Shown piece after piece: positions 5,329 to 30,241 of a stretch of DNA of 64,000 nt. How positions within the stretch are numbered: position 1 is the stretch's first letter; each line of letters begins with the position of its first letter. The DNA is taken from NCBI RefSeq assembly GCF_044905095.1, contig NZ_CP173258.1:2931277-2995276 (forward strand). The letters are read 5' to 3'. The DNA comes from Sphingomonas sp. MMS24-J13 (lineage in GTDB: Bacteria > Pseudomonadota > Alphaproteobacteria > Sphingomonadales > Sphingomonadaceae). The position numbers were made by a program, and so were the translations under genes. The notes under the pieces were generated by a model. It ran no database searches and had not been told where the DNA came from. It saw only the letters and a list, made by a program, of their open reading frames with translations.

Positions 5329-5419
5329 AGCGACCCAATCGATGCCTATTGGTTAAGACGCGCCGGAGACTTACGCGCCCAGCCGCGTTGATGCCCCTGA
5401 AATCATCAGGAGCAACACC

Positions 5420-5896
5420 ATGGCCGATCAGACCGAACTCAAGCGCGACCTCTGGAAGCGGATGGCGAAGAGCCCCTTCCTGATGATCGGCCTCACCGAG
5501 GGCGGGCATAGCGAACCGTTGACCGCACAGCTCGACGAGGATCAGGTCGATACGATCTGGTTCTTCATCGGCAAGGATAATCGCCTCGCCAAGGGCGGCG
5601 CCGCGACAGCCGAATTCGTGTCCAAGGGCCACGATTATTTCGCGAGCCTGTCGGGCCGCGTACAGGTGCAGAACGACCGCGCGATGATCGACAAACTCTG
5701 GTCGCGCCCCGTCGAGGCATGGTTCCCGGGCGGCAAGGAGGACCCCAACCTCGCTCTGCTGCGCTTCGATATCGACGATGCCGAATTGTGGGAGGCGGAC
5801 ATGTCGATCGCCGGCAAGCTGAAGATGCTGTTCGGCGGGAAGATCGAACCGAGCGAGGAAGGCAGTCACGCGAAGGTCGCGACGACGGCGGGATAA
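5420..5896 (+). CDS. Pyridoxamine 5'-phosphate oxidase-like / general stress protein 26 family
   Basis: Sequence pattern (WFFIGKDNRLAKG ... VQVQNDRAMIDKLWSRPVEAWFPGGKEDPNLALL) is typical of the GSP26/PNPOx-like split-barrel family. Confidence 0.6.
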   Translation: MADQTELKRDLWKRMAKSPFLMIGLTEGGHSEPLTAQLDEDQVDTIWFFIGKDNRLAKGGAATAEFVSKGHDYFASLSGRVQVQNDRAMIDKLWSRPVEAWFPGGKEDPNLALLRFDIDDAELWEADMSIAGKLKMLFGGKIEPSEEGSHAKVATTAG

Positions 5897-6015
5897 AAAC
5901 TCCCTCTCCCGCTTGCGGGAGAGGGTCGGGGAGAGGGGCCGAAGTAGCGGTAAAAACCGAACATTTCGTCGAGGCGCGCGGCCCCTCCCCCAACCCCTCC
6001 CTAAAGGGAGGGATT
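5897..6015. terminator. GC-rich nested hairpin block (gggagaggg-type) between convergent genes; likely bidirectional intrinsic terminator / REP
   Basis: Three nested inverted repeats: ctccctctcccgc-ttgc-gggagagggt, ggggagaggggccg...cggcccctcccc, and ccctccctaaagggaggg. Confidence 0.5.
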
Positions 6016-6019
6016 TAGA

Positions 6020-6904
6020 TCAGCGCAGCTTCAACGTCATGCTCTGCTGCCGCCCGATGCCGTGCAATTCCACCCGATCGGCAAAGAAATCGAGCACGGC
6101 ATAGGCCGTCTCTTCGGTATCCAGCATCGCCTTCAGATTTACATAGTGGATGCCGTCGCGCAGCCCGTAATTGCCCTCGTGATTATGCCCGTCGAGCCAC
6201 ACCTTCACCGACGGGTGCCGCTCGAGCAGCGCGATCACATCGGGCGCGTTCCACAGATTGTGCGGGTTTTCCGGCCAGAGCGGGAAGTGGCTGAACAGCA
6301 TCACCTTGAGCCCGCGCCGATCCGCCTCGCTAAGCCGCGCGTCGATCCAGTCCATCTGCGCCTCATCGATCGCACCGTCCCAGAGAGGTTTATCGGGATA
6401 GTGCACAGCGTGCACCGCCATCGAATGCGCCAGCTCGGCGCTGCCCTGCGGCCAGGCGTAGGCGCTGAGCCCGTTGCCATCGGTGACGATGAACATCCAG
6501 CCATGGTTGACGAAGCGGTGATAGCGCGCCGGCATGCCGAGCCGGGCGGGCACCCTTGCCTTGTCGGCATCGTCGACCCCGAAATCATGATTGCCGAGCA
6601 CGAACCGCCACGGGTGCCGCAGCTTGCCGGCGATCGGCAGCAGCGCATCATAGCTCTTCATATCCTTGTCGATGAAATCGCCGAGATGAACCGCGAAGGC
6701 GAGCTTGCGCCGGTTGAAATCCGCCACCGCTGCCGCGAGCTTGCCCGGCGCGGTATGGTAGAGCCGCGGCGGTGCGTCCGGCTCGTCAGCATATTGGCAA
6801 TCGGCGATGGCGCCGATGCTGAACAAGGGTTGCTCCGCTAACGCGGGCACGGCGGCGAGGCCGGCGAAGGCCAGCAGCAGCTTCAGGATCGGGCGCATGA
6901 GCAT
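6020..6904 (-). CDS. Secreted calcineurin-like metallophosphoesterase
   Basis: N-terminal signal peptide. Metallophosphatase motifs GDFIDKD, GNHDF and GHNHEG. Confidence 0.7.
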   Translation of the reverse strand: MLMRPILKLLLAFAGLAAVPALAEQPLFSIGAIADCQYADEPDAPPRLYHTAPGKLAAAVADFNRRKLAFAVHLGDFIDKDMKSYDALLPIAGKLRHPWRFVLGNHDFGVDDADKARVPARLGMPARYHRFVNHGWMFIVTDGNGLSAYAWPQGSAELAHSMAVHAVHYPDKPLWDGAIDEAQMDWIDARLSEADRRGLKVMLFSHFPLWPENPHNLWNAPDVIALLERHPSVKVWLDGHNHEGNYGLRDGIHYVNLKAMLDTEETAYAVLDFFADRVELHGIGRQQSMTLKLR

Positions 6905-7079
6905 CCTTCGGGTTCGAATCGCGCGCGCCTTCCCACCCGCCGCCCGGCTTGACCAGTGGCCGTGTCACAGCAGCTTCACATAGCGCCCCTACCCCGCAAA
7001 AAAATTTCCGAATCAGGGGACGAAGGGTGGCCGGCAACGGAACGCTGCGACAGGCGGCGGCCCTCGTGGTGCCGTCGCG

Positions 7080-8507: not shown

Positions 8508-8605
8508 CCACCCGTCACCCTGAACTTGTTTCAGGGTCCACCGTACGTACCGCACTGTCTGTGTAAATTGCCTGGTGGATGCTGAAACAAGTTCAGCATG
8601 ACGAA
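8508..8605. repeat. Large palindromic element, family C (arms gtcaccctgaacttgtttcagggtccacc / ggtggatgctgaaacaagttcagcatgac)
   Basis: Each arm is itself a hairpin (ctgaac-ttg-tttcag). The two arms are inverted repeats of each other separated by ~30 nt. It lies in the promoter region of the STN-TonB receptor. Confidence 0.55.
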
Positions 8606-11717: not shown

Positions 11718-11866
11718 AGCCCCCGCTTCTTCGGAGGCGGGGGCTTAACCCGGATACTCGTCACCCCGGCTTTGAGCCGGGGTCCCGCTGCCTTTCGACG
11801 GACCGGAAAGAGCGGGAGCCCGGGTCAAGCCCGGGGTGACGATTTAATTTGGGCGGGAATGACCTC
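11718..11866. terminator. Terminator hairpin (gcccccgcttcttcggaggcgggggc) plus composite array of palindromic repeats
   Basis: Perfect GC hairpin right after the receptor stop. It is followed by cgtcaccccggctttgagccggggtc ... gacccgggtcaagcccggggtgacg inverted repeats and a gcgggaatgacc half-site of family A. Confidence 0.6.
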
Positions 11867-13568: not shown

Positions 13569-14996
13569 ATGGCGGGCGACGATCAGCGGGCATGGGCGGC
13601 AATGGCGCAGGCCGCGCGCCACGCGATCGACTATCGGCGCGGGATCGCCACCGCCGAAACGACGCCCGCTGCCAGCTATGCCGACATGCTCGCGGCCTTC
13701 GCCGGCCCTGTCCCTGAAAATCCCGGCGATCCCGAACGGATCATCGGCGAGCTGGTCGAGCGCGCCACGCCCGGCATCCGCGCCTCGACCGCTCCGCGCT
13801 TCTTCGGCTGGGTGATCGGAAGTTCGCATCCGACCGGCGTCGCGGCCGACTGGCTGGCATCGGCGTGGGGGCAGAATGCGGGCAATCTCGTCGCGGCGCC
13901 GGCCTCGTCGGCGATCGAGGCGGTCGCGGCCGGCTGGCTGCTCGATCTCCTCGGCCTGCCGGCCGAAGCTTCGGTCGGATATGTCACCGGCGCCACCGTC
14001 GCCAACTTCGTCTGTCTCGCCGCGGCCCGGAGCGAGATGCTGCGGCGGGTCGGCTGGGACGTCGAGGCGGATGGGATGTTCGGGGCGCCCCCGATCGAGA
14101 TCCTGATCGGCGCCGACGCGCACGCGACCGTCTTTTCCGGCCTCAAATATCTCGGCTTCGGCGCGAAGCGGGTCACCACGATCGAGACCGACGCCATGGG
14201 CCGCATCATCCCTGCCTCGTTCGAACAAGCGGTGCGTGCCAATGCCGGCCCGAAGATCGCGATCCTGCAGGCCGGGCAGATCAACACCGGCGCCAGCGAT
14301 CCGTTCGAGGAGATCGTACCCATCGCGCACGATGCAGGCGCGTGGTGCCATGTCGATGGCGCGTTCGGCCTGTGGGCGCAGGCGAGCACAGCTTATCGGG
14401 ATCAGACGCGTGGCGTCGCGCTCGCGGATTCGTGGGGCACCGACGGCCACAAATGGCTCCAGACGCCGTACGATTGCGGCTTCGCGATCGTGCGCGATGC
14501 CGAGGCGCATGCCCGCGCGATGGCGATCTCGGCCAGCTATTTGCCGGGCTCCCAAGGCGCCGAGCGCGATCCCTCCGCTTACGTGCCCGAGCTCTCGCGC
14601 CGCGCGCGCGGCTTCGGCACCTGGGCGATGATCCGGCAATACGGACGCAGCGGCATCGCCGAGCTGGTCGAGCGCAATTGCGGCGTCGCGCGCTTCATGG
14701 GCGAGACTTTGGCGCTGGAGCCCGGGATCGACCTGGTCTGCCCGGTGGTGCTCAACCAGTTCATGCTGCGCTTCCATGCCGAGGGCCGCGATGTCGATGC
14801 GCTGACCAAAAAGGTGGTCGAGCAGGTGCAGGCCGACGCGGTGGCGTTCATCGGATCGTCGTTGTGGCGCGGCCAGTGGGTGATGCGCGTATCGGTATCG
14901 TCCGCGGCGACGACGTTCTCGGATGCCGAGGTGACGGTGGCGGCGGTGATCAATGCTTGGCGGAAAGTATCAGCCAACCCAGTCGCCCCTGCGTAG
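13569..14996 (+). CDS. Pyridoxal-phosphate-dependent decarboxylase (group II, fold type I)
   Basis: DGHKWLQTPYDCGF lysine motif typical of DDC/GAD-like decarboxylases. The start at 13569 (MAGDDQ) was chosen because the 13401 start overlaps the peptidase gene. Confidence 0.7.
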   Translation: MAGDDQRAWAAMAQAARHAIDYRRGIATAETTPAASYADMLAAFAGPVPENPGDPERIIGELVERATPGIRASTAPRFFGWVIGSSHPTGVAADWLASAWGQNAGNLVAAPASSAIEAVAAGWLLDLLGLPAEASVGYVTGATVANFVCLAAARSEMLRRVGWDVEADGMFGAPPIEILIGADAHATVFSGLKYLGFGAKRVTTIETDAMGRIIPASFEQAVRANAGPKIAILQAGQINTGASDPFEEIVPIAHDAGAWCHVDGAFGLWAQASTAYRDQTRGVALADSWGTDGHKWLQTPYDCGFAIVRDAEAHARAMAISASYLPGSQGAERDPSAYVPELSRRARGFGTWAMIRQYGRSGIAELVERNCGVARFMGETLALEPGIDLVCPVVLNQFMLRFHAEGRDVDALTKKVVEQVQADAVAFIGSSLWRGQWVMRVSVSSAATTFSDAEVTVAAVINAWRKVSANPVAPA

Positions 14997-15073
14997 GCAG
15001 GGGCCCATCTCTCCAACCATTTAAGCCGCCTCTCGTGCCAAAAGACATGGGCCCCTGCCTGCGCAGGGGCGAC
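14982..15073. repeat. Palindromic MITE-like element, family B (TIR gtcgcccctgcg-aggcaggggccca ... tgggcccctgcc-gcgcaggggcgac)
   Basis: A second copy with near-identical 25-nt TIRs lies at 29107..29198. The left TIR contains the last 5 codons and the TAG stop of the decarboxylase. Confidence 0.7.
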
Positions 15074-15081
15074 GGGAGAGG

Positions 15082-16725
15082 TTAGCCGATCACCTTCGTA
15101 TCGCCCCGCCACGCTAGTCGCGCGCCCGCACGATCCGCCCGCGCCGCCTGTTTCCTGCCCAACGCATCCTCCGCCTTCGCCCGGATCGCAAGCGCGACCG
15201 CATCGCGCGGGCGACGCTTCAACGATGCATCGGCCGCCGTGACCGCATCGCCCGCCTTGCCGCTTGCGAGCAAGGCGGCGGCGACGTCGCGGCGGACCGG
15301 ATACCACCAGATCGGCGGATCGGTCGCATCGGCGAAGGTCTTTGATTCCTCGATCGACGCGGCCTTTGCGAAGAGCTTCGCGGCGTCGACCGGCTTGTTC
15401 TGCAGCATCGCCGCACGTCCCTCGAGCACCAGCTTGGCGAGCTTGAACAATTTGGGGGCGGCCCCGCCCGTCGGATCGGGGTCGAGCGTCTCCGGCATCG
15501 CCTTCGCCTCGGCCAGCACGCCAGCGACATTGCCGGCGCGCGCGAACATCTCGCCGCGCGCATAACGCCAGAAGGCCTGCGCCGGACCATTATCCTTGCC
15601 CGGATCGGGGATGGCGAGCATTTCTTCGGCCGGCGCGTAGCGCGCGATCGCGATATAGGCGTCGCCGACGGCATGCTGGCTGTAGCGGTCGATCCTGGGC
15701 GTGCGCTTCGCCATCGCCACCACCGGCCGCGCCAGCCCGAGCGCGGCATTGCCGTCATCGGCCATCAGCGCGCCGGCGATCCCGAATACGACGTTGTGCC
15801 CGTAATAAGAGAGCGTCCAGCGCCCGTCGGGCTCGGCCAGCTTGAGCCGCTTCGCATTGTCGTCGCCGATCGCGACCGCATGGATGTTGGCCGTCGCCGC
15901 ATCCTCATAGCGCCCGATCCAGTAATAGGTATGCGAAGGCATGTGGACGAGGTGGCTCGCCGCCGGTGCGAGCGCCGCGAGCTTGTCCGCATAAGGCGTC
16001 GCGCGATCGGGATAGCCGCCCGCCTCGGTTGCATGGATGTAGAAATGGATCGCCGGCGTATAATCCGGATGACGCTTGAGCACGCCTTCGAGCAAAGCGA
16101 CCGGGCGAAGCATGCTCGCCGGCTTGTAATCGCTGTCGATCATCAACGCGTCGGCGGCGACGACGGCGATCTCGTCATCACCGGGCGATGCCGTGGCCAT
16201 CGCGTCCATCGCCTGCGCGAAGGCGTGATTGCCCTTGTCGTTGGTGTAACGCAGCCTGAGCGCGGCGATCAGAGCGCGCTCGTTCGGGGGTCCATCCTGC
16301 GCCAGTTTCTCGGCGGTGAGCGTGATCAGCGCGAGCTTCTCGCGGGCCTTGGCATCGATGCCGTAGTTGATCGTCGGCCCCGACGACCACGCTTCGCCCC
16401 ACGCGCACATCGCGCAATCGGGATCGAGCCGGCGTGCCTGCTGGAACGCCTCGATCGCGGCCTTGTGCGCGAAGGCGTGGGCAAGCTGCATGCCGTTGTC
16501 GAAGAAGGCCTGCGCCGTCGGATTCTTTGTCCGGATCGCGAAGCCACCGCCGCCATAGCCGGCGAGGATGCGCGGACTGCTGCCGGTGTCGACCGGATCG
16601 CCGCACCAATGCGGTGTGGCCGGGACAGGCGCTGGCGGTGGGGGCGGGGGCGCGCTGCCGAACAGGATCAGCATGGCGGGAATCAACAGTTTGCGCACGG
16701 GCGCCGCTCCAGAATCCGGGACCAT
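15082..16725 (-). CDS. Hypothetical secreted protein with TPR-like helical repeats
   Basis: Start refined to MVPDSG...LLIPAMLILFGSA signal peptide, followed by a Pro-rich linker. The remainder is helical-repeat-like. No specific family recognised. Confidence 0.45.
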   Translation of the reverse strand: MVPDSGAAPVRKLLIPAMLILFGSAPPPPPPAPVPATPHWCGDPVDTGSSPRILAGYGGGGFAIRTKNPTAQAFFDNGMQLAHAFAHKAAIEAFQQARRLDPDCAMCAWGEAWSSGPTINYGIDAKAREKLALITLTAEKLAQDGPPNERALIAALRLRYTNDKGNHAFAQAMDAMATASPGDDEIAVVAADALMIDSDYKPASMLRPVALLEGVLKRHPDYTPAIHFYIHATEAGGYPDRATPYADKLAALAPAASHLVHMPSHTYYWIGRYEDAATANIHAVAIGDDNAKRLKLAEPDGRWTLSYYGHNVVFGIAGALMADDGNAALGLARPVVAMAKRTPRIDRYSQHAVGDAYIAIARYAPAEEMLAIPDPGKDNGPAQAFWRYARGEMFARAGNVAGVLAEAKAMPETLDPDPTGGAAPKLFKLAKLVLEGRAAMLQNKPVDAAKLFAKAASIEESKTFADATDPPIWWYPVRRDVAAALLASGKAGDAVTAADASLKRRPRDAVALAIRAKAEDALGRKQAARADRAGARLAWRGDTKVIG

Positions 16726-16839
16726 CCATCTGCTCGCACGATCGGACAGCGAATGCGACGGGAATGTGCTTCGGCTCGCTGGCGGAACGAGCAGGGCTGC
16801 TCTATGCCGGTCGTTTCCTGCCCGAACGAGACTAAATCC

Positions 16840-18756
16840 ATGGCTTTGGTGAAGAAAACCGCGTTGGGAACCCGCAAGCGGGCCGTCGTCCCGGCCGAAG
16901 CGCCGGCAGCGGCCAAGCCGGCCCCGCGGCGCCCCGCCGCGGCGCCTGCGCGCGCGGCAACGGTGGTGCAGCGGATCGATCAGGCGACGCAGGAACTGGC
17001 GAGCGGGCTGGCCGAGGCGTCGGCAGCATCGACCGAGCTTCAGCAATCGATGGATCAGATCTCCAGCGGCGCGGAAGAAGCGGCGGGCGCCGCACAGGAA
17101 TTGTTGGGCGCGATCGCGGCGCTCGGTGCCGCTTTCCAGAAAGCGCGCGAGCGCGCCGAGGAATCGCGCCGCCAGTCCGAAACCGTGCAGGTCGCCTTCC
17201 AGGAGGCAAGCGTCCAGATCGACACGTCGGTCGCGGCGATCGAGCTCAATGCGCGCCGGCAGCTCGCCACGGTCGAAACCATCGACGCGCTCGAGGCGGC
17301 GGCGTCCGATATCGGCGAGATCGGCCAGGCGGTGGCGGACCTGTCCGAGCAGACCAGCCTGCTCGCGCTCAACGCGGCGATCGAGGCGGCGCGCGCCGGC
17401 GACAGCGGCTCCGCCTTCGCGGTGGTCGCCGACGAGGTGCGGGCGCTGGCCGAGACTTCCGAGGGCAATGCCGGCGATATCCAGCGGCTGTCAGCCAGCA
17501 TCGCCACCGAGGTTCGCGCCGTCGCCGATCGGGTGCGCGCGGCGGCGGCCACCGCCACGGCGGAGGCCGATGCCGGGCGCGGCGTCATCGCCCAGCTCGA
17601 GACCGGCCGCAGCGAACTCGCCGCGCTGGCGAGCGGCTCGCAGGAGATCCTGCTGACCGCGGTCGAGGCCGACGGCGCGGCGCGCGAGGCCCAGCGCGGC
17701 GCCGAGCAGGTGGCGAGCGCGGCGGAGGAGCAATCCGCCGCCGCGGCCGAGGCACAGCAGGCGATCACGCAGCAGAGCCTGTCGCTCGAGCAGAGCCAGC
17801 AGACCGCCGAGGAACTCGGCCGGCTGACCGGCGCGCTGGAGGACGAAGCCGCACGCCAGATGACCGCGCAGGAAGTGGCCGCGGCGGCCGAGGAATTGTC
17901 GGCGACCGTGCAGGAATTGTCGGGCGCTTCCAGCCAGATCCAAGTCGCGATCGAGCAGATCGGGCGCGGCGCCGAGATCCAGGCGGCCGCGACGCTCGAG
18001 GCGAACAGCGCGATGGCGCAGATCGAGAGGTCGGCGGCACTGGCGGAGGAACGGTCGAGCGAGGCGGCCGCGCGCATCGGGGGCGTCGTCGCCGGCGTGG
18101 CCGTCAGCCGTGAAACCGTGGGCCGGCTCGCCGCGGGGGTCGATACGGCTTTGGTCGAAACACGCGCCGTGCTCGGCCTGCTCGCCGGCCTCAACGAGAC
18201 CGGACGGCGGATCGAGAAGATCACCGACGGCCTCGCCTCGATCGCGTTGCAGACCAACATGCTCGCAGTCAGCGGATCGGTCGAGGCGACACGCGCCGCC
18301 GAAGCCGGAGTCGGCTTCGCTACGGTGGCTGGCGATATCCGCAAGCTTTCGCGCGAAGCCGCGCTCAATGCCGAGCGCGCCAGGGATGTCATCCGCGCGA
18401 TCCAGGATCAGGTGACCGCCGTCCGCCGCGATCTCGACCAGATCGTCGGCGCGGCCGAAGACGAGACCGCGCGCAACCGCGCGATGGTCGAGCGCTTCCG
18501 CATGATTGCGGCCGATCTCGACGCGGCGCAGGCGGCAAGCCGCGGTATTTCCGGCGATGCCGAGGCAATTCTGCGATCGGTGCGCGAGGTCAAGAGCGGG
18601 ACCGAGCAGATCGCGACCGCCGCCGACATCGCCTCCAGCGCCGCGCGGGAGGCCGCCAGCGCCGCCCGCCAGCAGGCGCAGGGGACCGAATTGCTCGCCG
18701 CCGCGATCGAGGAGATCGCATCGCTCGCCGAAGCGCTGGCGACGCAGGCCGCCTGA
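16840..18756 (+). CDS. Soluble methyl-accepting chemotaxis protein with two tandem signalling (MA) domains
   Basis: No TM segments. Canonical tip motif TSLLALNAAIEAARAGDSGSAFAVVADEVRALAE, and a second degenerate copy QTNMLAVSGSVEATRAAEAGVGFATVAGDIRKLS about 300 aa downstream. The 1027-aa ORF's N-terminal portion is antisense to the neighbouring gene. Confidence 0.8.
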   Translation: MALVKKTALGTRKRAVVPAEAPAAAKPAPRRPAAAPARAATVVQRIDQATQELASGLAEASAASTELQQSMDQISSGAEEAAGAAQELLGAIAALGAAFQKARERAEESRRQSETVQVAFQEASVQIDTSVAAIELNARRQLATVETIDALEAAASDIGEIGQAVADLSEQTSLLALNAAIEAARAGDSGSAFAVVADEVRALAETSEGNAGDIQRLSASIATEVRAVADRVRAAAATATAEADAGRGVIAQLETGRSELAALASGSQEILLTAVEADGAAREAQRGAEQVASAAEEQSAAAAEAQQAITQQSLSLEQSQQTAEELGRLTGALEDEAARQMTAQEVAAAAEELSATVQELSGASSQIQVAIEQIGRGAEIQAAATLEANSAMAQIERSAALAEERSSEAAARIGGVVAGVAVSRETVGRLAAGVDTALVETRAVLGLLAGLNETGRRIEKITDGLASIALQTNMLAVSGSVEATRAAEAGVGFATVAGDIRKLSREAALNAERARDVIRAIQDQVTAVRRDLDQIVGAAEDETARNRAMVERFRMIAADLDAAQAASRGISGDAEAILRSVREVKSGTEQIATAADIASSAAREAASAARQQAQGTELLAAAIEEIASLAEALATQAA

Positions 18757-27361: not shown

Positions 27362-27412
27362 CTGTCATGCGATTCGCTTAACCAAAAGCGAAAGCGACAT
27401 GACAGGGGCTGA
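27362..27412. promoter_or_regulatory. Imperfect ~50-bp palindrome (ctgtcatgcgattcgctt...aagcgaaagcgacatgacag) spanning the annotated pit start codon
   Basis: Inverted repeat visible directly. It contains a CTGTCAT Pho-box-like half-site and overlaps ATG 27399, so the true start may be ATG 27417 or later. Confidence 0.35.
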
Positions 27413-29021
27413 TTTAATGAACGCGACTATTGCCATGTCTCCGCGGGCGACCCGCCCGGAGATGGACAAGGGGTTGGGCAAGGCCGGAATGCTGGGCTTC
27501 GGCGCAGCGGTGATCGCGGCGATCCTGTACGTGGCGTACAGCGTCTATATCGATGCGAGCGCGGCCGGCGTGCATGCCTCGGCCTATCTGCCCTTCTTCC
27601 TGCTGTTCGTGGCGCTGCTGATCGCGCTCGGCTTCGAGTTCGTGAACGGCTTTCACGACACCGCCAATGCCGTCGCGACGGTGATCTACACCAACGCGCT
27701 GCCGGCCAATGTCGCGGTCGTGTGGTCGGGCTTCTTCAACTTCCTCGGCGTGCTGCTCTCCACTGGCGCGGTCGCGTTCGGCATCGTCTCGCTGCTGCCG
27801 GTCGAGCTGATCCTGCAGGTCGGCTCGCATGCCGGCTTCGCGATGGTGTTCGCCTTGCTGATCGCGGCGATCCTGTGGAACCTCGCCACCTGGTGGCTCG
27901 GTATCCCTTCCTCCAGCTCGCACACATTGATCGGGTCGATCATCGGTGTCGGCGTCGCCAACGCGCTGCTGCACGGCAAAAGCGGCACGGCGGGCGTCGA
28001 CTGGGGCAAGGCCACCGAAATCGGCCAGGCGCTTCTGCTTTCCCCGCTCGTCGGCTTCGGCCTCGCCGCGCTCTTGTTCATCGCGATGAAACTGCTCGTC
28101 AAACGGCAGGACCTTTACAGCGAGCCCAAGGACGGCCTGCCCCCGCCGCTGTGGATCCGCGCTTTGCTGATCTTCACCTGCACCGGCGTGAGCTTCGCGC
28201 ACGGATCGAACGACGGGCAGAAGGGCATGGGCCTGATCATGCTGATCCTGATCGGCACCGTGCCCACCGCTTATGCGCTCAACCGCGCCGTGCCCGAGAA
28301 ATATGCCGTCGAATTCCACATGAATTCGGCCGCCGCCGCCAGCGCGCTGGGCCAGACTCCGCCCGCCGGCGAAACCGCCGCCGAGGCGCGCAGGCAGGTG
28401 ACCACCTATATCGCCGACAAGCATTTCGCGCCGGCGACCCTCCCCGCATTGTCGGTGCTGATCGGCGACGTCGACAAGCAGGTGCGCGAATATGGCTCGC
28501 TCGCGAACGTTCCGCAGGCCGCGGTCAACAACATGCGCAACGACATGTATCTCGCCTCCGAGGCGATCAAGCGCCTGGGCAAGGACAAAGCCGCGAACCT
28601 GTCGGACGCGAGCATCAAGTCGCTCAATACCTACAAGAAGTCGCTCGATGCAGCGACGCGCTTCATCCCGACCTGGGTCAAGATCGCGGTCGCCTTCGCG
28701 CTCGGCCTCGGCACGATGGTCGGCTGGAAGCGGATCGTCGTCACCGTCGGCGAGAAGATCGGCAAGACCCACCTCACCTATGCGCAGGGCGTGTCGGCCG
28801 AGCTGGTGGCGATGGGCACGATCTTCGCTGCCGACAATCTCGGCCTGCCGGTCTCGACCACCCATGTGCTGTCGTCGGGTGTCGCGGGTACGATGGCCGC
28901 CAACGGTTCGGGGCTGCAGATGAGCACGTTGCGCAACATGCTGATGGCGTGGGTGCTGACCCTGCCCGTCTCGATCGTGCTGGCGGGCGTGCTTTACACG
29001 GTGTTCTCGCAAATCTTCTGA
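27399..29021 (+). CDS. pit: Inorganic phosphate transporter, PiT family (long form with large central loop)
   Basis: GFHDTANAVATVIYT and C-terminal repeat GSNDGQKGMGLI signatures. ~130-aa hydrophilic loop in the middle. Start uncertain (27399 / 27417 / 27489). Confidence 0.8.
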   Translation: MTGADLMNATIAMSPRATRPEMDKGLGKAGMLGFGAAVIAAILYVAYSVYIDASAAGVHASAYLPFFLLFVALLIALGFEFVNGFHDTANAVATVIYTNALPANVAVVWSGFFNFLGVLLSTGAVAFGIVSLLPVELILQVGSHAGFAMVFALLIAAILWNLATWWLGIPSSSSHTLIGSIIGVGVANALLHGKSGTAGVDWGKATEIGQALLLSPLVGFGLAALLFIAMKLLVKRQDLYSEPKDGLPPPLWIRALLIFTCTGVSFAHGSNDGQKGMGLIMLILIGTVPTAYALNRAVPEKYAVEFHMNSAAAASALGQTPPAGETAAEARRQVTTYIADKHFAPATLPALSVLIGDVDKQVREYGSLANVPQAAVNNMRNDMYLASEAIKRLGKDKAANLSDASIKSLNTYKKSLDAATRFIPTWVKIAVAFALGLGTMVGWKRIVVTVGEKIGKTHLTYAQGVSAELVAMGTIFAADNLGLPVSTTHVLSSGVAGTMAANGSGLQMSTLRNMLMAWVLTLPVSIVLAGVLYTVFSQIF

Positions 29022-29106
29022 GCGAAGCCGCAACGTTAAAGTTCGGCCCCGCGCCCGAACCGGGCGCGGGGCCGAATTCATTTTGGCGCCACCGTCCCAC
29101 CAAAGC

Positions 29107-29198
29107 GTCGCCCCTGCGAAGGCAGGGGCCCATGTCTCTCGTTACCAGCGGCATCGTCTGTGGATGGAGAGATCGGCCCCTGCCTTCGCAGGGGCGAC
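29107..29198. repeat. Palindromic MITE-like element, family B, second copy
   Basis: TIRs gtcgcccctgcgaaggcaggggccc / ggcccctgccttcgcaggggcgac match the copy at 14982..15073. Six-frame ORFs over both copies give the same MGPCLRRGD peptide. Confidence 0.7.
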
Positions 29199-29248
29199 GG
29201 ACGAGGACTGGGGAGGACCGGTTTAGCCGCCGACTCGGCAGGCCCGGA

Positions 29249-30175
29249 TCAATACCGATCGGGCACGTACATCTCGTCCGGCACCGGATGACGGATATAA
29301 TCGTCGCGCCGTTCGCGATCGGGCAGGATCACCGCCGGCTTCGGAACCTCCTCATACGGAATCTGATCGAGCAGGTGGGCGATGCAATTCAGCCGCGCGC
29401 GCTTCTTGTCGACCGCCTCGACCAGCCACCACGGCGCCTCGGGGATGTGCGTGCGTTCCAGCATCGCTTCCTTGGCGCGAGTATAATCTTCCCAGCGGCG
29501 GCGCGATTCCACGTCCATCGGCGAGAGTTTCCACTGCTTGAGCGGATCGTGGATGCGCATGTTGAAGCGGAACTGCTGTTCCTCGTCGGTGATCGAGAAC
29601 CAATATTTGATCAGGATGATGCCCGAGCGGACCAGCATCCGTTCGAACTCAGGCACCGAGCGGAAAAACTCCTCGACATCGTCGTCGTTGCAGAAGCCCA
29701 TGACCCGCTCGACCCCGGCACGATTGTACCAGCTGCGATCGAACAGCACGATCTCGCCCGCCGCGGGCAGATGCGTGGCGTAACGCTGGAAATACCACTG
29801 AGTGCGCTCGCGCTCGTTGGGCGCGGGCAACGCCGCGACCCGGCAGACACGCGGGTTGAGCCGCTGGGTGATCCGCTTGATCGCGCCGCCCTTGCCGGCG
29901 GAATCGCGGCCTTCGAAGATCACGACGACCTTGAGGCCCTTGTGCTGGACCCAGTCCTGCAGCCGGACGAGCTCGTGCTGGAGGCGGAACAGCTCGCGGA
30001 AGTAGGTGCGGCGGGGAAGCTGGTCATGCTCCGGCTGATCGGCGAGGTCGCCCGCCAGTTCGTCGAGGCGGGCCTCGTCGAGTTCCATCTCGAGTTCCTC
30101 GTCGAAGCTGTCGGTGATCTCCTGCTTGATCCGGTCCATGTCGAATGCGGGGTGCGGCTCTAACGACAGGGTCAT
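29249..30175 (-). CDS. ppk2: Polyphosphate kinase 2 (PPK2, polyphosphate:nucleotide phosphotransferase)
   Basis: Walker A FEGRDSAGKGG and PPK2 motif DRSWYNRAGVERVMGF. Start refined to MTLSLEP (30175). Confidence 0.85.
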   Translation of the reverse strand: MTLSLEPHPAFDMDRIKQEITDSFDEELEMELDEARLDELAGDLADQPEHDQLPRRTYFRELFRLQHELVRLQDWVQHKGLKVVVIFEGRDSAGKGGAIKRITQRLNPRVCRVAALPAPNERERTQWYFQRYATHLPAAGEIVLFDRSWYNRAGVERVMGFCNDDDVEEFFRSVPEFERMLVRSGIILIKYWFSITDEEQQFRFNMRIHDPLKQWKLSPMDVESRRRWEDYTRAKEAMLERTHIPEAPWWLVEAVDKKRARLNCIAHLLDQIPYEEVPKPAVILPDRERRDDYIRHPVPDEMYVPDRY

Positions 30176-30241
30176 GGGCAATGCTTTCGGCTGATGGATA
30201 GGGTCAAGGCATCGCACCGGGCTGTGACACTATTCTGACGC

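Follow-up and report, generated by a model that had tools for sequence, protein, structure and literature searches.

Two palindromic elements of a Sphingomonas genome as probable head-to-head dimers of a CGTC-tagged repeat, with an Ssn-like nuclease as likely partner

Results

A 64-kb stretch of the Sphingomonas sp. MMS24-J13 genome (hereafter the window, meaning the whole stretch of DNA that was analysed) carries two 92-bp palindromic elements, copy 1 at 14982-15073 and copy 2 at 29107-29198, each of which consists of two inverted copies of a 27-nt unit. We conclude, with a probability of roughly 80%, that both are head-to-head dimers (tags outward) of the CGTC-1 repetitive extragenic palindrome (REP), in a variant with the stem GCCCCTGC/GCAGGGGC. 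The initial annotation had reported two palindromic elements of ~90 bp, and both were confirmed: each is 92 bp long, and the unit occurs four times in the window and not at all in shuffled sequences.

Structure of the two elements

The unit has the form (C)GTC-GCCCCTGC-GNAG-GCAGGGGC-CCA, written out as GTCGCCCCTGCGWAGGCAGGGGCCCAT or as GTCGCCCCTGCG-W-AGGCAGGGGCCCAT; other renderings are CGTCGCCCCTGCGNAGGCAGGGGCCCA and CGTCGCCCCTGCGNAGGCAGGGGCC. With 0-1 mismatches it was found at 14982-15008 (+), 15047-15073 (-), 29107-29133 (+) and 29172-29198 (-), where 100 shuffles gave an expectation of 0, and its density in the window is about one per 16 kb. The core GCCCCTGC-NNNN-GCAGGGGC returned the same four sites (0.13 expected). 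The parts of the two elements are as follows.

14982-15008, plus strand: left REP unit of copy 1; tag GTC at 14982-84, preceded by A and not by the usual C; stem GCCCCTGC at 14985-92, loop GTAG at 14993-96, stem GCAGGGGC at 14997-15004, tail CCA at 15005-07
15009-15046: spacer of copy 1, 38 nt; its edges TCTCTCC... and ...AAAGACA lengthen the palindrome, its centre is variable
15047-15074, minus strand: right REP unit of copy 1, inverted; CGTC-GCCCCTGC-GCAG-GCAGGGGC-CCA on that strand
29106-29133, plus strand: left REP unit of copy 2; CGTC-GCCCCTGC-GAAG-GCAGGGGC-CCA
29134-29171: spacer of copy 2, 38 nt; aligns with the copy 1 spacer only after copy 2 is reverse-complemented
29172-29199, minus strand: right REP unit of copy 2, inverted, with the tag CGTC, the loop GAAG and a tail that reads CGA, not CCA

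The inverted arms of each element are complementary over 33-34 nt at 91-94%, and the whole elements, folded as single strands, gave energies of -73 to -79 kcal/mol (z-scores -7.9 to -10.9). Every arm is also a hairpin in its own right, with a perfect 8-bp stem in four of four units, a 4-nt loop, (C)GTC before it and CCA after it (CGA in one unit). This changes the identity of the element from a pair of plain terminal inverted repeats to a pair of REPs. Across the whole window, no Rfam family reached its gathering threshold.

The two copies lie in opposite orientations, and the reverse complement of copy 2 agrees with copy 1 at 83% over 93 nt. Both copies have the spacer edges CCATCTCTC... and ...GAGACATGG, which also occur in dimers of other Sphingomonas genomes, and the variable part of the dimer amounts to ~24 central nt of the spacer. 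The cores had been called divergent, which holds for these central nucleotides but not for the spacer as a whole.

Assignment to the CGTC-1 family

CGTC-1 REPs were described as a CGTC tag (TGTC and CCTC being allowed variants), an 8-bp stem, a 4-nt loop and a CCA tail, with a predominance of head-to-head dimers and spacers of 20-100 bp (Di Nocera, De Gregorio & Rocco 2013, BMC Genomics 14:522; PMC3733652). They are abundant in alphaproteobacteria, their hosts including Sphingomonas wittichii, Sphingopyxis alaskensis and Erythrobacter litoralis, and in S. wittichii the REPs of convergent genes lie <20 bp from both open reading frame (ORF) ends, with certain repeats overlapping ORF termini (PMC3733652). 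The elements of the window agree with this description in their unpaired tag (CGTC in three of the four units), stem, loop and CCA-type tail, in their head-to-head arrangement with 38-nt spacers, and in lying no more than tens of bp from the 3' ends of convergent or co-directional genes and occasionally overlapping an ORF end. The left unit of copy 1, tagged AGTC, departs from it, and so do the first two stem pairs (see below).

The peptides encoded by the repeats provide a further link. Additional file 3 of the 2013 study lists, among intragenic CGTC-1 repeats, MGPCLRRGD (Swit_3114), VAPAQAGA (pyruvate dehydrogenase E1 and E2 of S. alaskensis) and RAPAKAGA (residues 294-301 of the 304-aa RarD of E. 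litoralis), all three of which are translations of exactly the stem variant found here. In the window, MGPCLRRGD appears in ORF 13865-15085 (+) and in ORF 28774-29154 (-), and the earlier interpretation of this shared peptide as a reading-frame artefact was upheld. The family, its habit of overlapping ORF ends and the exact spurious peptide are thus already known, and the copies are ordinary members.

Distribution and arrangement of the unit

We scanned one genome per species in 8-kb blocks and found the unit in at least 118 blocks, mostly from Sphingomonadales, Massilia/Burkholderiales and Dokdonella/Luteibacter. Hosts among the matches listed were Sphingomonas, Sphingopyxis, Novosphingobium, Erythrobacteraceae, Massilia, Herbaspirillum, Dokdonella and Luteibacter, besides others. 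Two dimers of this stem variant occur in the 64 kb of the window, and the unit is multicopy in related genomes. Several single genomes held at least 7-9 blocks (for example at least 7 in S. gilva), and Massilia sp. TN1-12 held at least 10.

Dimer and profile counts were made over the 118 repeat-bearing loci and the window. Exact tags-outward pairs of 76-146 bp numbered 28 in the loci and 30 when the two window copies were included. Neighbouring units were arranged head-to-head in 30 cases, tail-to-tail in one and in tandem in six, and 105 of 161 unit matches were unpaired by the exact pattern. Target-site duplications were sought in the flanks of the 30 dimers and were found in none.

One dimer of Massilia sp. 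TN1-12 (L002, 7001-7085) is a hybrid, its left unit being of the GCCCCTGC type and its right unit another CGTC hairpin (GTCGTCCCGGCGAAGGCCGGGAC). Judging from this case, many apparent singletons may be halves of heterodimers. In Sphingomonas endophytica (L022, ~4517) and Sphingomonas sp. 8AM (L041, ~7007), the repeat begins 4-7 nt past the stop codon of orthologous genes, which suggests that some copies were inherited vertically across species. Arrays of three units in the same orientation were seen in a metagenome-assembled genome (MAG) of Dehalococcoidia (L034, 5126-5339, ~95-bp spacing) and in Pacificimonas flava (L070, 983-1487, ~240-bp spacing), in contrast to the usual inverted pairs.

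An Ssn-type GIY-YIG nuclease as likely partner

In the 2013 survey, no tyrosine transposase was flanked by CGTC repeats and no associated enzyme was reported (PMC3733652), so that these repeats were orphans until a partner, the GIY-YIG single-stranded DNA (ssDNA) nuclease Ssn, was described in 2025 (PMC11893778). In Neisseria, the NTS repeat, a CGTC hairpin that encompasses dRS3, is bound as ssDNA and cut a few nt upstream by SsnA (Chenal et al. 2025, Nat Commun 16:2388; PMC11893778). SsnA is a 94-aa single-domain GIY-YIG nuclease for which double-stranded DNA and RNA are not substrates, its gene typically has NTS repeats on its flanks, and it modulates transformation. For cleavage, the three bases before the palindrome matter most, and for binding the C that immediately follows it. 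Binding and cutting of ssDNA were shown for Neisseria and Wolbachia Ssn homologues with their CGTC hairpins, and homologues accompanied by NTS-like repeats were named in Rhizorhabdus wittichii, Wolbachia and Sphingomonas (PMC11893778).

All-against-all clustering of ORFs of ≥100 aa within 400 nt of the repeats yielded no shared or transposase-like neighbour across the 118 loci, a threshold too long for GIY-YIG genes of ~95 aa. These genes were found by a motif scan of short ORFs (≥60 aa) in the repeat loci: genes for GIY-YIG proteins of 94-97 aa (PF01541, with E-values of 1.7e-12 and 2e-14) adjoin the unit in a Herbaspirillum (L102), in Sphingomonas sp. NPDC079357 (L054) and in a Novosphingobium (L077). 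The Herbaspirillum locus has the order REP-gene-REP, with a repeat at 5944, the gene at 6069-6362 and a second repeat at 6376.

We also performed the reverse test, retrieving homologues by protein alone (the best 120 of thousands of protein matches). All four loci checked (L123, L124/125, L130 and L132) carried the unit, in each case with a unit within 70 nt of the GIY-YIG gene, and the furthest unit was 255 nt away. Three gene calls among these best 120 homologues read into the repeat (P0168, ...WAPACAGAT; P0218, SPCLRRGD...; P0220, ...GPLPTQGRR). Taken together, the unit directly flanks GIY-YIG genes of ~95 aa in seven of seven independent loci examined. Because of this association, a genome-encoded Ssn-like ssDNA nuclease would be the likely partner of the units in this organism, by analogy with Neisseria.

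Other features point the same way. The unit is an oriented CGTC-hairpin-C repeat like that of the NTS/SRM-SsnA system, and the base right after the stem, which is C in 160 of 164 units (followed by C in 99 and A in 117), matches the binding determinant of Neisseria SsnA. As in that system, a single-domain GIY-YIG gene of ~94-97 aa lies between or next to the repeats in other genomes, such as that of the Herbaspirillum, and Sphingomonas and Rhizorhabdus are named there among repeat-rich hosts. In contrast, the unit falls outside the SRM pattern of that system, and the transformation-modulating role has no known counterpart here. Binding and cleavage were measured there, whereas the sphingomonad enzymes are known here from their genes.

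Several observations weigh against our explanation, from the identity of the repeat to its partner and its role in RNA. No Ssn homologue was found within the 64-kb window, which was the part of the source genome searched. The units fail the published SRM pattern, HGTCWYN(0-2)YYVSBRHN(0-5)WNVSBRGN(0-2)RNCYNB (PMC11893778), even when W is relaxed to N; in the window only 60262-60289 and 60330-60357, the two halves of a canonical dimer, match it. The Ssn-type genes were assigned to PF01541 and are putative homologues of Neisseria SsnA (cd10448); the protein gave no NCBIfam equivalog above cut-off and no relative of solved structure (PDB). Two of the repeat-adjacent ssn genes look decayed: the one in L054 (403-660, minus strand) has an in-frame TGA after ...QQHREG, and the copy in L077 (64-336, plus strand), from a Novosphingobium MAG, is without the first GIY strand and motif. 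The first two stem pairs of our units are G:C and C:G, although the first and second stem positions of CGTC repeats were described as 'almost invariably' A/T (PMC3733652). Since peptides encoded by this stem variant are tabulated as CGTC-1, the authors of that description include the variant despite its stem start. Finally, copy 2 already follows a terminator-like hairpin (29042-29076), so that a terminator role of the dimer is not needed there.

Overlap of copy 1 with the decarboxylase gene

Both copies are placed between convergent genes, just 3' of them. The genes concerned are:

13569-14996, plus strand: pyridoxal phosphate-dependent decarboxylase of 475 aa (PF00282), which shares its final 15 nt with the left REP unit of copy 1
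15082-17046, minus strand: convergent ORF with no Pfam match, start uncertain (538-654 aa)
27399-29021, plus strand: PHO4-family phosphate transporter, upstream of copy 2; stop codon at 29019-21
29249-30217, minus strand: polyphosphate kinase 2 (PPK2), convergent with the transporter gene; stop codon (29249-51) 50 nt from copy 2

The product of the decarboxylase ORF matches a protein of Sphingomonas sp. MMS24-J13 at 100% identity. The ORF ends in ...AWRKVSANPVAPA*, encoded by aac cca GTC GCC CCT GCG TAG, in which V-A-P-A-stop is supplied by the left unit; the unit is thus in frame with the gene and gives its final codons, as had been noted from the sequence. The stop codon TAG (14994-14996) lies within the loop of the hairpin. 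The convergent ORF has its stop codon (15082-84) 8 nt past the right unit, and the entire 85-nt gap between the two genes is occupied by the dimer.

We then asked whether the insertion has replaced the native C-terminus, as the initial annotation had it. In 119 decarboxylase orthologues, the conserved domain ends in ...AWRxV[RKS] and is followed by 1-11 unconserved residues, the commonest ending being a single G. The alignment was inspected for PVAPA ends, which would speak against a repeat-derived tail, and none of the 119 orthologues had one. An orthologue of 79% identity (P0004) ends in ...VSAN*, exactly where the REP-associated sequence starts, and has no repeat downstream; one of 85% identity (P0002) ends in ...VRETA*, with a repeat-free gap of 24 nt between it and a convergent gene. 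However, a metagenomic orthologue of 72% identity (P0085; L121, 4400-4428) ends in ...VSTNPVTTD*, likewise with no repeat downstream, and has aac ccN gtc (N-P-V; aac ccg gtc in P0085) in common with the window decarboxylase. This match could be coincidental, or the GTC 'tag' codon could be older than the repeat. The loci of the closest orthologues (L119/L120, L121 and L122) contain no repeat, but their downstream gene content also differs and they are not strict empty sites. As the C-termini are hypervariable and none is PVAPA, a REP-derived tail is plausible, if unremarkable. The codons A-P-A-stop, at least, therefore derive from the repeat, while P and V may or may not. Replacement of the native C-terminus by the insertion is plausible.

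The stop codon depends on an uncommon loop. In 164 family units the loop was GCAG in 91, GAAG in 55, GGAG in eight and GTAG in six; the T that creates TAG is therefore rare, and C or A at this position would leave the frame open for ~75 more codons, into the convergent gene. The base at -1 of the tag is C in 150 of 164 units and A in one; it is A in the left unit of copy 1, where the change from CCC to CCA is synonymous for proline. The rare T and the A at -1 hint at adjustment after the overlap arose, but are suggestive only.

Discussion

Alternative explanations

The initial annotation had called the elements MITE-like (MITE standing for miniature inverted-repeat transposable element), with terminal inverted repeats. 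A classic MITE would be an internally deleted insertion sequence with termini of 25-34 nt, recognised in trans by a DDE transposase and inserted with a target-site duplication. A length of 92 bp, long near-perfect inverted termini, a variable core and multiple copies would all fit such an element, and a short, non-coding, palindromic repeat family is indeed what we found; the label is loose but not absurd. Yet the absence of target-site duplications in all 30 dimers, the CGTC-tagged hairpin that each terminus forms and that also occurs singly, the hybrid with a different hairpin, and the lack of a recurring transposase-like neighbour across the 118 loci render this explanation extremely improbable. 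REPINs, known from Pseudomonas and Enterobacteria (Bertels & Rainey 2011; Nunvar et al. 2010), resemble our elements in that they also consist of two inverted REP hairpins and a spacer that form one long hairpin, are non-autonomous and intergenic, and follow the same logic of a hairpin plus a tetranucleotide tag; the doublet architecture and the absence of target-site duplications agree with those of REPINs (PMC3116915, PMC3337134). A REPIN would be moved as a unit via ssDNA by a single-copy REP-associated tyrosine transposase (RAYT) of the HUH/Y1 type. Unlike those elements, ours carry the tag CGTC and not a GTAG-type tag, and no HUH/Y1 transposase gene was found near the units. A tblastn search with RAYT/TIRYT queries (b228 of E. 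coli and six proteins from Additional file 5 of PMC3733652) found none at E≤0.01 in the window and the 118 loci (~0.9 Mb), CGTC repeats flank no such gene in PMC3733652, and what does lie between or beside the units is a gene for a GIY-YIG nuclease. We therefore consider mobilisation by a RAYT very unlikely. A weak RAYT tblastn match in L002 proved on reading not to be a RAYT.

The elements might also have evolved locally, as bidirectional terminators or mRNA-stabilising hairpins of no mobile or nuclease-linked origin. Their position between convergent genes and their very stable hairpins are in keeping with this, as are spacer edges that are pyrimidine- or T-rich beside the CCA tail in many Sphingomonas dimers. 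Moreover, the T-rich run CCATGTCTTTTGG follows the right unit of copy 1 on the minus strand, and the resulting terminator-like match lies 12 nt beyond the stop of the convergent gene. This was the only one of four transcription directions that passed a simple terminator scan, and copy 2, as stated above, stands downstream of a separate terminator-like hairpin. The presence of an identical sequence of 23-27 nt in alpha-, beta- and gammaproteobacteria, where the loci are unrelated, excludes local evolution and refutes a purely local origin, and we judge this explanation very unlikely in the form given. What is rejected is this explanation on its own; a secondary function of this kind, gained by exaptation, is compatible with dimers of CGTC-1 REPs.

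Possible mechanism and function

If the CGTC-1 dimers behave like the Neisseria repeats, each unit would fold into its hairpin in ssDNA, and an Ssn-family GIY-YIG nuclease would bind the folded unit and cut a few nt 5' of the tag. The short dimers would then be non-autonomous relatives of REP-ssn-REP units. When transcribed, a dimer would form a 3' hairpin of the stability given above and would probably block read-through or 3' exonucleases between convergent genes; such a role at the RNA level is a tentative suggestion, somewhat less probable than not.

In the decarboxylase gene, the dimer lies at or in the hypervariable 3' end, where the rare loop T provides the in-frame TAG and, with it, a short, harmless V-A-P-A tail. 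We regard the overlap as incidental and the tail as a harmless by-product. By analogy, the stop codon inside a hairpin may slow translation termination, which is pure inference. In E. coli, REPs ≤15 nt from a stop codon cause ribosome stalling (Liang, Rudd & Deutscher 2015, as summarised in PMC12306157). The left unit of copy 1 resembles these in being a hairpin within 15 nt of the stop of the upstream gene, here even overlapping it, but stalling was demonstrated for GTAG-type REPs and in E. coli alone.

A more far-reaching scheme combines these elements. The units with the GCCCCTGC stem would be the private site of a distinct sphingomonad/oxalobacterial Ssn clade, the head-to-head dimers of 76-146 bp would be internally deleted REP-ssn-REP elements ('MITEs' of an element driven by a GIY-YIG nuclease and not by a transposase), and selection would have favoured the rare loop T at 14994 as a means of capping the decarboxylase ORF after insertion. 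As a joint proposition we consider this speculative and rather unlikely.

Significance

Our findings are an incremental extension of a known family and not a discovery. Their value lies partly in annotation, as the dimers account for spurious ORFs and shared peptides (MGPCLRRGD, VAPA(K/Q)AGA) and for the non-conserved tail of four to five residues in the decarboxylase. The additions are modest: a stem variant that lies outside the SRM motif and yet beside Ssn-type genes in all seven loci, and a stop codon that uses a rare loop variant. Since the SRM motif misses this variant although it flanks Ssn-type genes, published counts of repeats in Sphingomonas may be underestimates. Ssn clades with new ssDNA specificities probably await characterisation.

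Other hairpins in the window

The window holds three more head-to-head dimers of the CGTC type with other stems, at 8513-8603, 11758-11842 and 60262-60357. The first, between co-directional genes, has the stem CGTCACCCTGAAC... and the second, between convergent genes, the stem CGTCACCCCGGC.... The third is a canonical CGTC-1 dimer (CGTCATTCCCGCG[C/T]AGGCGGGAATCCAT; canonical unit CGTCATTCCCGC) with arms that are 97% complementary. It differs little from the Neisseria NTS core and is located 7 nt beyond the stop of the minus-strand gene 60364-63165. Together with copies 1 and 2, five of five CGTC-type dimers in the window lie just 3' of genes, and their differing stems indicate four stem families of one repeat super-family within 64 kb.

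Two further structures are of other kinds. The hairpin that precedes copy 2 has a perfect, GC-rich stem of 16 bp (TTCGGCCCCGCGCCCG/CGGGCGCGGGGCCGAA), with TTCATTTTGG behind it; it lies 21 nt after the stop codon of the PHO4 transporter gene, looks like the true intrinsic terminator of that gene, and falls just below the T-run threshold of the scan. An unrelated inverted repeat (GAGGGTCGGGGAGAGGGGCCG / CGGCCCCTCCCCCAACCCCTC) at 5921-5999, 81% complementary with a 37-nt spacer, occupies the gap between the convergent ORFs 5357-5896 (+) and 6020-6964 (-).

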